From Octopus vulgaris (taxonomy: Eukaryota), in NCBI GenBank assembly GCA_951406725.2, contig OX597821.1, forward strand, positions 67,394,001 to 67,458,000: DNA of 64,000 bases, in the 5' to 3' direction. The position numbers and the translations under genes were made by a program. Below, in pieces: positions 33,955-39,400 of this stretch; position 1 is the stretch's first letter; each line of letters starts with the position of its first letter. The notes under the pieces were generated by a model. That model saw only the letters and a program-made list of their open reading frames with translations. It was not told the origin of the DNA and did no database searches.

Positions 33955-35470
33955 AAAGAAAAAAGGTTTGAAAATGCAATTTAAACGATGTTTATTTACT
34001 TAACCGGTTTCACTCTTTGGTAAAAGATTGTCAAAAGTTACATTTAAGGAAACATTGAATAATATGGGTTCAAAAAAAGTTTTTTACATAATTGTCACAT
34101 TGAATATTATGCATTCAAAAAAGTTTTTTACATACTTGTCACATTGGATATTATGAATTCAAAAATGTTTTTTTATACATAATTGTCACATTACATGTAT
34201 AAATATAGTGTTTGGTAACAGAGAAGTTCAATAGTGTGATGAGAATATTTGGGAAAATTTGGCAGAAAAGGATAAAACAAATATATTATTGGGAATTGGT
34301 TGCGTTAATTATTGGTTGTCGCAAATTGTCACATTACATGTATATATATACAATCTTTGGTATATATATACAGCGTTTTGACAGCAAAAATTAAAATGGA
34401 TTTTTTGTACATCTCAGAATATTTTAAGTATGTTTTTACTGACCTGTCAGTATTAGCAGACAGGCTGAACTGAGAGAACAGAAGAAGTAGCCAATGTGGT
34501 GTATACTTCCCCTTTATGCATGAATGATTTTGGGGTTATCAGGAGGTTAGTATGCGGGTGTGAATAGATGTGTCCGTGCCTGCTGGTCAGATAGCGTCTG
34601 TTTGTCACACACATATATATACACACAAACACACACACACACAACAACACACACACACACACACATAGTATACAAACACACACCACATACAAACAACACA
34701 CACACACACAGAACACACACACCCACACACAACGCACCCACATATATCACATATACACACAGCACACAAATATAACATGTATCTATATATAACATACACA
34801 GATATATAACACACATACACACACAACACACACACACACACACACACACACACACACAACACACGCACACATACATACATAATATAAATATCACACAAAT
34901 ACACCTAGCATATATATACACACATACAATACACACATACAGCATGTAAGTAATATACATACACAATATATGCATGCAATATACATACGCAATACATACA
35001 TATAATATATATATATATAGACAATGCATATACATATATACACATATACATATAAATAGTGTTTACATACACATACATAGATGTACCACATATACACACA
35101 ATACACATACATACAATGCATACACATACACGTACGCATACATATAATATATATATACACACACACACATAACATACATACACACACAATGCATACATAT
35201 ATATACACGCAATGCATATACATGTATTCATGCATATATAGCACACCTACAATATACATATATACAGTGCACACATACACACAAATATATACACTTAATT
35301 GTACACGTACATATACAATACACATACATACAATATACATATACACAATGCGCATGCAAATAATGTACATGTTTATACACACATAAACATGCAAATAAAT
35401 ATACACACACACACATACACACACACACATATATATATACACATATATATATATATATATATATACACAC
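33955..35470 (-). repeat. Left arm of ~1.5 kb inverted repeat (distal PLE 3' UTR)
   Basis: Reverse complement of 37841-39360, including unique sequence and compound CA/TA tracts. Confidence 0.93.
33998..34038 (-). ncRNA. Second copy of the U3-A8 hammerhead-like motif, in the PLE 3' end
   Basis: Exact reverse complement of 39276-39316. Confidence 0.65.
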
Positions 35471-36081
35471 ATACATACATACATACATGCACATACATAT
35501 ATTTTTTCACACACATACACACACATATATATATATAAAAAATTCACCCACCCCCCCCACACACAAATTACAAACCTATAGCGTACACACTCAAATATAT
35601 CTCTACATGCCGCACACACACACAAACAAAGTACTAACATATACACACATACCATGCATATACACACACAACACACACACATATATATATATATATATAT
35701 AAAAACAGATACATATGTAAATACATACACACGTACACAATGCTCACACACACACACACATACACACACACCCGCACACAGTGCACACACACACACACAT
35801 ATATACACACGTGCACACACACACACACACAACGCACGCACACACACATATACACACACACGCACACAGTGCACACACACACACACAAACACACAACACT
35901 CACACACATACATCACCTACATATATATAATGCATGCGTGTGCATGCCACGTATGTGTGCGGTCAATGCCCGCTAGTGTGTCCTATGCGTGCCGATGCGC
36001 GCATGTGCCCGCCCGCACGATATGCTGTGAGCGTGCGCGCGTCCCTGTGTGCTTGCTCTGGATGTGCTTCCAGGGTGTATG

Positions 36082-37830
36082 TTAGAGTATGTTTAGTTGT
36101 GGTCTGTATTTTTTAATAAGATTACTTTCCTTATTTATTCGTGTTTGGTCTGTGGTGTTGTCCGAGCATTGGTATAGTGGGAAGACTAAGAATTTGGGGG
36201 ACTTATTGTGTGCACAAAGGTCTAAGTGTCCACTTAGTGGTATCTGTCTTGTGGAGGGGTCCCTCAGTTGTTGTCGGTGAACTGTCATTCTGTCTCTGAG
36301 GGTAAGGCTCGTTTGCCCTATGTAGTCTTCGTGGCATCCTTCACACCTTATGACGTAGAGTAAATTTTTTGATGCGCACGTGAAGTTATTTTTTATGATG
36401 AATGTGTGTCCCGAGTGGAACTTGTACGACGATCCCTCAATGAGGTGGATGCAGGTCTTACAGTTGGGGCGACCACATTTTTTGATGGTGGGCGGTGGGT
36501 TTGTGTTGTGTAATTTTGCGTTGGTGAGGAGGTTTTTTAGGGATTTAGGTTGTCTCTTACTTTTTATTATTTTATGAGCTGCCAGTATTTTTTTCAGGCG
36601 TGGGTCTTGATTTAGTTGTGGAATGTTGTTGTATATAATAGTGTAAGCTTCTGCATTCCTTGGGTTGTGTGTTGAGAGATAAGGGAGGCTATTGACTGTA
36701 CTGTGGATGTGTTTGGGTTTTCGAAGGTCTTGAATGTTGATTGATTTGGCCCGTTCTATTCCGTTGTCTACTAGTGATGCCGGGTAATGTCTTTCGAGAA
36801 GAATTGCCCTTAGTTCCCGGAGTCTTCTATTTTGTGTTGTGTCATTTGAGACAATAGTGCAGATTCTTCTCGCTAGGTTGAAGGGGATATTTGTCTTTGT
36901 GTGTTTTGGGTGATTGGAGGTGAATAGAAGGTATTGTTTAGAGTCAGTGGGTTTGTAATGGATGTCAGTTTCAATGTTGACGCCTTTTTTAATGATTAGG
37001 ATGTCAAGAAAAGGGAGTTGGTCCTGACTATATTCCATTGTGAATTGAATGTTGTTATTTACACTGTTGATAAGGTTTTTGAAGTCTATAAGTTGGTCGA
37101 GTGTGTGGGACCATAGGATGAGGTAATCATCTAAGTAGCGTTTCCAGTTCTCCAACAGGTATTTGTGGAAAGACTGGCCGTAATTATATTTGGATTTTTC
37201 ATAGATATGTGATTCCAGGTAGGCCATCACCAGGTTTGCATAGGTAGGTGCAACTTTCGTACCCATTGCAGTTCCTGAGACCTGTCTGTAAGTGTTGTTG
37301 TGGAAATACATGAAGTTGTTTTGCAGAATAAATTTGAGGCCCTCAATTATGAATTCTTTTTTAATTCTTTCCGGGATCTCATTGGGATATTTATCCAGCC
37401 AGAATTTAATGGCTTCCAGTCCAAATTCATGTGGGATTGTGGTGTAAAGATTAATAACATCAAAAGAAACGATTAAGGTGTCTTTATCGGCATGTTTGGG
37501 GAGATGGTTTAATAGGTCCAGGTCATCTCTTACAATACTTGGAATGTGTTTCAGTATTGGCTTTAAGATGATATCTATAAAGTTGCTAAGTCTGTGTGTT
37601 TCACAACTTGGGCCTGCCACTATTGGTCTCAGTTTGAGATCAGTGGGATGTGGTATAGTGATGCAGGTTGAAGTGGACTTTTTGCAAGCTTCTGTGATAA
37701 TTTGACTCTTGTGTATTTTTGGAAGCCCATAGAGTGTGCTGGTTTTGCAATTAAATTTAGTAATGTAGTCGCATTCCTTTGCTGTCAAGTCATTCCGGTC
37801 TTGGTAAATGAGTGCCTTCAGATTGGTCAT
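36082..37830 (-). CDS. Penelope-like element ORF (reverse transcriptase + Cys-rich linker + C-terminal GIY-YIG endonuclease), 5'-truncated, Neptune-like architecture
   Basis: 582 codons without a stop. PLE RT motifs LYGLPKIHK, LRPIVAG, VSFDVINLYTTIP, GTAMGTKVAPTYANL, WKRYLDD, LPFLDI, YKPTDS..YL..SNHP. Linker CGRPNCKTC. Endonuclease NLLYVIRCEGCHEDYIGQT...RMTVH...SGH. The frame runs upstream of the ATG into the inversion junction at ~37841, so the N-terminus is missing. Confidence 0.96.
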   Translation of the reverse strand: MTNLKALIYQDRNDLTAKECDYITKFNCKTSTLYGLPKIHKSQIITEACKKSTSTCITIPHPTDLKLRPIVAGPSCETHRLSNFIDIILKPILKHIPSIVRDDLDLLNHLPKHADKDTLIVSFDVINLYTTIPHEFGLEAIKFWLDKYPNEIPERIKKEFIIEGLKFILQNNFMYFHNNTYRQVSGTAMGTKVAPTYANLVMAYLESHIYEKSKYNYGQSFHKYLLENWKRYLDDYLILWSHTLDQLIDFKNLINSVNNNIQFTMEYSQDQLPFLDILIIKKGVNIETDIHYKPTDSKQYLLFTSNHPKHTKTNIPFNLARRICTIVSNDTTQNRRLRELRAILLERHYPASLVDNGIERAKSINIQDLRKPKHIHSTVNSLPYLSTHNPRNAEAYTIIYNNIPQLNQDPRLKKILAAHKIIKSKRQPKSLKNLLTNAKLHNTNPPPTIKKCGRPNCKTCIHLIEGSSYKFHSGHTFIIKNNFTCASKNLLYVIRCEGCHEDYIGQTSLTLRDRMTVHRQQLRDPSTRQIPLSGHLDLCAHNKSPKFLVFPLYQCSDNTTDQTRINKESNLIKKYRPQLNIL

Positions 37831-37840
37831 TGTTTTGGAT

Positions 37841-39400
37841 TGTGTGTATATATATATATATATATATGTGTGTATATATATGTGTGTGTGTGTATGTGTG
37901 TGTGTGTATATTTATTTGCATGTTTATGTGTGTATAAACATGTACATTATTTGCATGCGCATTGTGTATATGTATATTGTATGTATGTGTATTGTATATG
38001 TACGTGTACAATTAAGTGTATATATTTGTGTGTATGTGTGCACTGTATATATGTATATTGTAGGTGTGCTATATATGCATGAATACATGTATATGCATTG
38101 CGTGTATATATATGTATGCATTGTGTGTGTATGTATGTTATGTGTGTGTGTGTATATATATATTATATGTATGCGTACGTGTATGTGTATGCATTGTATG
38201 TATGTGTGTTGTGTGTATATGTGGTACATCTATGTATGTGTATGTAAACACTATTTATATGTATATGTGTATATATGTATATGCATTGTCTATATATATA
38301 TATATTATATGTATGTATTGCGTATGTATATTGCATGCATATATTGTGTATGTATATTACTTACATGCTGTATGTGTGTATTGTATGTGTGTATATATAT
38401 GCTAGGTGTATTTGTGTGATATTTATATTATGTATGTATGTGTGCGTGTGTTGTGTGTGTGTGTGTGTGTGTGTGTGTGTGTGTGTGTGTGTATGTGTGT
38501 TATATATCTGTGTATGTTATATATAGATACATGTTATATTTGTGTGCTGTGTGTATATGTGATATATGTGGGTGCGTTGTGTGTGGGTGTGTGTGTTCTG
38601 TGTGTGTGTGTGTTGTTTGTATGTGGTGTGTGTTTGTATACTATGTGTGTGTGTGTGTGTTGTTGTGTGTGTGTGTGTTTGTGTGTATATATATGTGTGT
38701 GACAAACAGACGCTATCTGACCAGCAGGCACGGACACATCTATTCACACCCGCATACTAACCTCCTGATAACCCCAAAATCATTCATGCATAAAGGGGAA
38801 GTATACACCACATTGGCTACTTCTTCTGTTCTCTCAGTTCAGCCTGTCTGCTAATACTGACAGGTCAGTAAAAACATACTTAAAATATTCTGAGATGTAC
38901 AAAAAATCCATTTTAATTTTTGCTGTCAAAACGCTGTATATATATACCAAATATTGTATATATATACATGTAATGTGACAATTTGCGACAACCAATAATT
39001 AACGCAACCAATTCCCAATAATATATTTGTTTTATCCTTTTCTGCCAAATTTTCCCAAATATTCTCATCACACTATTGAACTTCTCTGTTACCAAACACT
39101 ATATTTATACATGTAATGTGACAATTATGTATAAAAAAACATTTTTGAATTAATTCATAAATTATGTCCAATGTGACAATTATGTAAAAAACTTTTTGAA
39201 TGCATAATATTCAATGTGACAATTATGTAAAAAACTTTTTTTGAACCCATATTATTCAATGTTTCCTTAAACGTAACTTTTGACAATCTTTTACCAAAGA
39301 GTGAAACCGGTTAAGTAAATAAACATCGTTTAAATTGCATTTTCAAACCTTTTTTCTTATATAATCCCACTCGTGCGATACCCCACAACTCAACTTTTTT
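37841..39400 (+). repeat. Right arm of inverted repeat, with ~40 nt extra terminal extension (39361-39400)
   Basis: Matches the left arm, then continues ataatcccactcgtgcgataccccacaactcaactttttt before (AT)n. Confidence 0.92.
39276..39316 (+). ncRNA. Minimal type I hammerhead-ribozyme-like motif, U3-A8 core variant
   Basis: ACTT-TTGACAA-TCTTT(TACC)AAAGA-GT-GAAA-CCGG-TT-AAGT. Stem I ACTT/AAGT, stem II TCTTT/AAAGA, palindromic stem III ACCGGT, GUU cleavage triplet. Confidence 0.65.

Follow-up and report, generated by a model that had tools for sequence, protein, structure and literature searches.

A 5'-truncated Penelope-like element and an inverted copy of its 3' end, meeting head-to-head between (TA)n runs of Octopus vulgaris: a likely young insertion

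Introduction

A stretch of 64,000 nucleotides from Octopus vulgaris (assembly GCA_951406725.2, contig OX597821.1, positions 67,394,001 to 67,458,000 of the forward strand), here called the window and numbered from its first letter, carries a Penelope-like element (PLE) with an inverted structure. We read it, at a probability of about 0.82, as a 5'-truncated PLE copy that meets, head-to-head and between two (TA)n runs, a shorter copy of its own 3' end in inverted orientation, the whole likely being one young insertion by a Neptune-type family. Insertion as a single event within roughly the last million years is likely. The copy is non-autonomous, and the family to which it belongs is abundant and was active recently.

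Structure of the insertion

The element lies between a (TA)24 run at 33908-33955 and a (TA)54 run at 39400-39507. The longer copy (33956-37842, minus strand) consists of an open reading frame (ORF) and a 2.1-kb 3' region, or pseudo-long terminal repeat (pLTR), whose 3' end has no tail. By alignment, the distal part of this 3' region forms the left inverted-repeat arm (33956-35471, minus strand), and the right arm (37841-39358, plus strand) is the second copy, inverted and truncated more heavily. The right end only is extended by an A/C-rich tail of 41 nt (39359-39399, plus strand; 12 A, 14 C, 3 G and 12 T). The two 5'-truncated copies meet at 37840-37842, where the protein of a relative points to a possible overlap of 2 nt.

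After global realignment the arms agree at 1,505 positions and are set apart by 5 substitutions and 7 short indels, the initial local alignment having returned 1,509 matches and 6 mismatches, one of which is an end effect of TA slippage. The arm differences are concentrated at three 44-nt tandem units in the pLTR (34052-34192, with the corresponding units of the right arm at 39115-39262), which stand directly upstream of the hammerhead-like motif described below and hold 5 of the 12 differences. The first-pass annotation of this DNA had reported a copy of about 1.5 kb of the element's own 3' untranslated region (UTR), inverted and beginning where the ORF breaks off, together with arms differing at few positions, an extra tail of about 40 nt on one arm and outer ends that both run into (TA)n; this architecture was recovered in every respect, the ORF being cut at 37842. 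The window contains 44 runs of at least 15 TA units, and because these together cover 2,046 of its 64,000 bases, the location of both element ends on such runs is well above that of a random position, though this is a single insertion. Searches with blastn and tblastn found no second copy of the element elsewhere in the window.

The encoded protein and its relatives

The minus-strand frame is open from 37911 to 36082, and its coding part (37842-36082) specifies 586 residues without a stop; counted from the first ATG, at 37830, it comprises 582 codons, as the first-pass annotation had stated for an uninterrupted ORF. The protein, P0001, contains a reverse transcriptase (RT), a Cys linker and, at its C-terminus, a GIY-YIG nuclease, and about 185 N-terminal residues are missing. 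Homology to a 772-aa relative, P0002, begins at residue 186 of the latter, precisely at position 37842 (73.6% over 587 aa by tblastn), so that the ORF is 5'-truncated at the junction. The N-terminal motifs GxKF and DKG, both present in P0002 (74%), fall in the lost residues. A selenoprotein reading was rejected, since there is no in-frame stop and the ORF terminates in TAA.

P0001 matches Pfam RVT_1 (E 5e-8, residues 72-259) with YLDD intact, and alignment with relatives shows its RT aspartates, linker and nuclease residues (LLY-YIG, CCHH, R, H, E, N) all intact, the nuclease residues being judged by eye against Fig. S2 of PMC8557442. The GIY-YIG domain of P0001 itself gave no Pfam match; many relatives are annotated PF01541. 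P0001 matched 2,013 proteins out of 8,000 candidates scored, and the best 120 are 44-82% identical to it; the named relatives among these 120 are from molluscs (Octopus bimaculoides at 82%, Pinctada, Mytilus, Crassostrea, Saccostrea) or are bivalve-symbiont entries. Taken with the richness of the window in microsatellites, these relatives would make an octopus host likely. Full-length relatives measure about 750-770 aa. The protein modelled with AlphaFold was P0002, the first row of the alignment, rather than P0001; its model has a mean predicted local distance difference test (pLDDT) score of 84.9, and the top Foldseek match was the Candida telomerase RT 6zdq at E 1e-7 with a TMq of only 0.35, retron RTs following close behind. 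A sequence search of the PDB with the protein alignment returned nothing at E 0.1.

Classification

The insertion carries four canonical features of endonuclease-positive (EN+) PLEs, the N-terminal GxKF and DKG motifs, likewise canonical, having been lost with the truncated part: a single ORF with a telomerase-related RT, a C-terminal GIY-YIG nuclease with CCHH and the catalytic R, H, E and N, an inverted pLTR-type structure with a tail (here the 1.5-kb inverted copy and the 41 nt), and, near the 3' end, a hammerhead-like motif with putative self-cleavage. That EN+ PLEs form inverted pLTR insertions, as had been asserted at the outset, agrees with the architecture described in PMC8557442.

Within the EN+ PLEs, the clade is indicated by the linker. 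In P0001 it reads CX4CxxC, starting at residue 456, and is followed by a spacer of 24 residues to the next Cys, in keeping with the Neptune linker (CX2-5CxxC and a long spacer). Counted by eye in Fig. S2 of PMC8557442, the spacer is 25-27 residues in four Neptune rows and 7 in three Nematis rows, and 116 of the 127 collected proteins match the linker pattern with a spacer of 23-25. A Cys linker before a C-terminal GIY-YIG had been named as a Neptune-type feature, and the spacer length agrees with that. Four other placements were considered and rejected: Nematis on the spacer (24 residues versus about 7), Penelope/Poseidon on the presence of the Cys linker, Naiad/Chlamys on the C-terminal position of the nuclease, and Hydra on the presence of CCHH.

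An RT tree was built with FastTree from 90 RT cores (13 collected proteins and 77 of 132 related loci, after filters for length, stop codons and duplicates) and rooted at the midpoint. P0001 is sister to O. bimaculoides XP_014771811.1 (support 0.96) and stands, in this tree without named references, among mollusc-associated long-linker elements, apart from a group of eight rows (support 0.97) that includes three linker-less elements. Neptune itself is paraphyletic (PMC8557442). From its linker spacing the element is, with good confidence, Neptune-like, the tree being one without named Neptune references.

Hammerhead-like motif

A minimal type-I hammerhead-like motif of the U3-A8 variant was predicted from the nucleotide sequence with a descriptor of our own. 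It measures 41 nt and is situated about 40 nt inside the short end of each arm, at 33998-34038 in the left copy (minus strand) and, identical to it, at 39276-39316 in the right copy (plus strand). Its parts are a 4-bp stem I, a core with the U3-A8 pair, a 5-bp stem II that a U-U step precedes, a helix III of palindromic sequence and a GUU site. The U3-A8 variant is known from Schistosoma PLEs (PMC4209133), and the U-U layout is common in the motifs of File S2 of PMC8557442.

In the shuffle control, 2 of 500 shuffles contained a match to the descriptor, and the first descriptor gave one additional weak match in the window, at 23675. With a stricter descriptor in which positions 3 and 8 were left free, the motif was found on the sense strand of 30 of the 132 related loci and on the antisense strand of one, and all 29 distinct sense motifs pair position 3 with position 8 (18 C-G, 10 U-A and 1 A-U). 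Rfam yielded 118 matches at E values of up to 10, none of which reached the gathering score; most were microRNA models on dinucleotide repeats, and no hammerhead model was among them. When 39270-39330 and 39255-39399 were folded without constraint, the hammerhead fold did not emerge clearly. On the WLWD01 contigs (L045-L073), PLEs were observed in tandem arrays spaced by about 4 kb, where C3-G8 and U3-A8 hammerheads are mixed among neighbouring families.

Target sites and related loci

Fifteen close loci extend as far as the C-terminus. Two of them, L005 (37% identical to P0002) and L009 (46%), have the same T-rich terminus running into (TA)n as the short end of the present element. This insertion and these two loci fit the proposed microsatellite targeting, which is a possible trait of the family as a whole.

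Inverted repeats of at least 150 bp occur in 4 of the 132 related loci. One of these, L087, is a linker-less (Poseidon-like) element with an inverted copy of 796 bp at 98.9% (521-1312 and 4068-4862) and hammerheads on both strands. Of the related loci, 58 (L075-L132) with PLE-related RT sequence lie in bacterial genome bins, many of them in one Stappiaceae bin; these most likely represent contamination from animals or other eukaryotes, of a kind remarked on in PMC8557442.

The 3' region

The 3' region contains a 1.3-kb simple-sequence tract rich in TG/TA (34601-35919, minus strand), whose distal 870 nt are present in both arms; the tract is therefore part of the mobilised unit. Because of it, the distance from the stop codon to the hammerhead is unusually long, about 2,050 nt here, whereas 11 of the 15 close loci have their first candidate 72-504 nt from the stop.

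Much of the same region may correspond to a retained spliceosomal intron (34470-35903, minus strand), with a donor-like site at 35903, a branch-like site at 34552-34546 and an acceptor-like site at 34470, and its removal would leave 613 nt. The same acceptor region recurs in the right arm near 38755-38838. A branch and an acceptor in order were seen in 3 of 3,000 shuffles, in a test framed after the sites had been seen and with the usual splice consensus. Neither the branch-like nor the acceptor-like motif is rare enough alone: the site at 34470 does not match the strict acceptor pattern, and the branch-like heptamer is not enriched in the window (9 observed, 14 expected by chance). Word shares of 0.39-0.45 in runs guessed to be RNA, against 0.33 from the ORF and the unique UTR, hint faintly that the tract belongs to the transcript, and low-complexity words of the flanks could add 0.08 to such a share. 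PLEs retain pLTR introns, and 5'-UTR introns are described in Penelope and Chlamys-3 (PMC8557442). A broader scenario, which we find rather doubtful, is a high-copy and recently active octopus Neptune family that keeps in its pLTR a spliceosomal intron, some 1.4 kb long and full of TG/TA microsatellite, and whose insertions would target (TA)n, add 1-2 kb of simple repeat each and so feed the microsatellite load of octopus genomes. If the tract were a retained intron in every copy, the family would help explain microsatellite gain in octopus genomes.

Age, abundance and activity

Four of the 24 listed runs, all 24 of which consist of contigs, were compared with 35920-37880. Family sequence is present in all 30 bins of each of the four. 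Three DNA runs hold near-identical family sequence at very great depth. In X2 and X6, contigs that match the ORF without a difference for 115-191 nt have a word depth of 2,400-3,800, and in X10 (RNA by the tool's guess) contigs of 1,001 and 609 nt show 3 and 2 differences from the ORF. Depth relative to single-contig joints suggests hundreds of copies, depth being, according to the tool, not a copy number.

Of 1,760 coding bases, five are read differently in each of the four runs, another letter making up 96-100% of the depth there. The five private changes of the ORF are all nonsynonymous, a pattern as expected for neutral drift of a non-functional copy. This private change of about 0.3% converts to about 0.8 million years (My; 0.26-1.84) at 0.0036 per My, a rate quoted in PMC13282606, there after Albertin 2015, and the arm divergence converts to about 0.5 My; both estimates are upper bounds because copying and assembly errors add differences. 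The window's letters at 37124 and 37800 occur in no contig of the four runs, which is a hint of polymorphism only, since contigs show presence and not absence. Deletion-like joints at 36111-37499, 36119-36935 and 36773-36846, with sides of 20-29 nt, are common to runs of organisms A and B. The first-pass annotation had seen a young and probably still active family. Its youth is supported by the low private change and the abundant near-identical sequence; as to continued activity, no intact full-length copy was found, and the odds that the family is still moving today are about even.

Origin of the insertion

The right arm has the tail that the left one is without and the left has the ORF that the right is without, so neither arm is a fold-back copy of the other, and both were therefore likely made from element RNA. 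A route for this is offered by PAc, the Poseidon element of Anolis carolinensis, for which it is described that both strands are cut and extended and that the tail is bounded by two RT start sites, and for which a dimer is predicted (PMC11167929). By analogy, the protein of an intact copy located elsewhere would have nicked each strand of a (TA)n run, and each 3'-OH would have primed reverse transcription on element RNA, starting at the inner site without the tail at the left end and 41 nt further out, with the tail, at the right. The two cDNAs would have halted after about 3.9 kb and 1.56 kb, been joined at their growing ends and then been filled in, and the copy would have drifted after insertion. 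We lean towards such a course, with both strands of the nicked TA run serving as primers, reverse transcription begun at two start sites and the cDNA ends then joined.

The structure could in principle have arisen by two separate insertions, the second a truncated copy that entered in opposite direction into a TA run beside the first. The family is abundant and TA-associated, and several arm differences are crowded into some 40 nt of the 44-nt repeats, the pattern that two different donors would leave; two donor RNAs are, however, also compatible with a single event, no TA run separates the 5' ends, and the ORF adjoins six bases that continue the match to its own UTR. Inverted copies adjacent at their 5' ends are moreover a standard PLE product (PMC8557442), one of which is seen in L087. 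We consider two insertions very unlikely. An assembly artefact, whether from a read that folded back or from two genomic copies wrongly joined, we also consider very unlikely. The region is rich in microsatellites, assemblers are troubled by structures of this kind (PMC8557442), the junction is without read support in the four runs compared (in which repeat-like letters were skipped), and the letters at 37124 and 37800 that no contig carries fit an assembly error as well as absence of the copy. A fold-back read would nevertheless have duplicated the left arm and its flank exactly, whereas the arms differ at 12 places, and it could not have added a 41-nt tail of PLE-typical length. The least probable origin is from a single cDNA that switched template by folding back on the new strand, or from a DNA-level inverted duplication after insertion: CA/TA-rich sequence, which is easily misprimed, surrounds the switch point, but the left arm cannot supply the tail nor the right arm the ORF, and this origin survives only if the left copy formerly had a tail and then lost it.

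Several points weigh against a single young insertion by a Neptune-type family, made by priming from both strands. The two-primer model comes from PAc, with in vitro data for a different clade (PMC11167929), and is not known from any Neptune element, and the Neptune placement itself is one of linker spacing, the RT tree having no named references. No target-site duplication is readable within (TA)n, and 13 of the 15 close loci are without a TA end, most of them being short contigs that possibly stop before it. In the run comparison repeat-like letters were skipped at the junction, where the fall of depth in the last bin is uninformative, and the RNA nature of X10 is a guess of the tool. No intact full-length member of the exact family was met among the relatives found, the best full-length relative being 74% identical, and P0007, the relative from O. 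bimaculoides, is a fragment of 419 aa in which YLDD is damaged. From the joints common to both, part of the family may, weakly, predate the split between organisms A and B. With these points taken into account, the single young insertion remains the reading that we prefer.

Other features of the window

The other transposable-element (TE) remnants of the window had all been called decayed; 0 of 112 other complex ORFs of at least 70 aa gave a TE-related Pfam match, the remnants themselves not being identified, and 4 of the 112 gave weak non-TE matches below the cut-off. Short GC-richer pieces lie between TA runs of the left flank (33612-33645 and 33720-33760) and presumably resemble the head of a short interspersed element. 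Two tandem repeats were noted elsewhere, a TGG-rich minisatellite with periods of 39-77 nt at 7515-7878 and, at 58649-58796, 3.3 copies of a 45-nt unit at 97%.

Comparison with known elements

Each structural feature of the insertion has already been described for its clade by Craig et al. 2021 (PMC8557442), namely the inverted 5'-truncated copy, the tail of 30-40 bp at one end, the pLTR hammerheads and the TA targets, and it is for this reason not a new kind of structure. It differs from the Neptune clade (Arkhipova 2006, as described there) in its unusually long 3' region and in a nuclease GIY that reads LLY. Among the papers searched, none was found to describe this family or a pLTR filled with microsatellite; Repbase and Dfam were outside the search, and the family may be catalogued there. 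The octopus PLEs Naiad_Obim, Naiad_Ovul and Hydra-1_Obim (PMC8557442, File S1) share the preference for (TA)n insertion, likely in the same host group. Unlike the present element, Naiads have an N-terminal nuclease and no canonical hammerheads, and the Hydra nucleases are without CCHH (PMC8557442).

Young PLE insertions are already known from Octopus vulgaris, in which 31 recently active families with 336 insertions are reported (PMC13282606), and the present family may be among these 31. The nearest named relative, XP_014771811.1 (P0007) of O. bimaculoides, is 82% identical over 71% of P0001 and, unlike P0001, is a broken piece of 419 aa annotated as an uncharacterized gene; the case shows how PLE ORFs enter databases as host genes, as with this entry, or as bacterial proteins.

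The significance of the insertion is modest: it exemplifies, cleanly and at a young age, a product that is known but whose mechanism is unsettled. Like PAc, it has two end points that bound an A/C-rich tail, a hammerhead just upstream of the ends and AT-rich targets; unlike it, the Penelope/Poseidon clade of PAc is without the Cys linker, and the PAc ORF begins inside the hammerhead (PMC11167929), whereas no ATG lies here between the hammerhead and the end of the tail, the last being at 39259. Tailed and tail-less end points on opposite strands of one insertion fit two-strand priming with two RT start sites, which have so far been shown only in vitro and for a Poseidon element (PMC11167929), and a high-copy young octopus Neptune family would permit the two-start-site model to be tested on many insertions.

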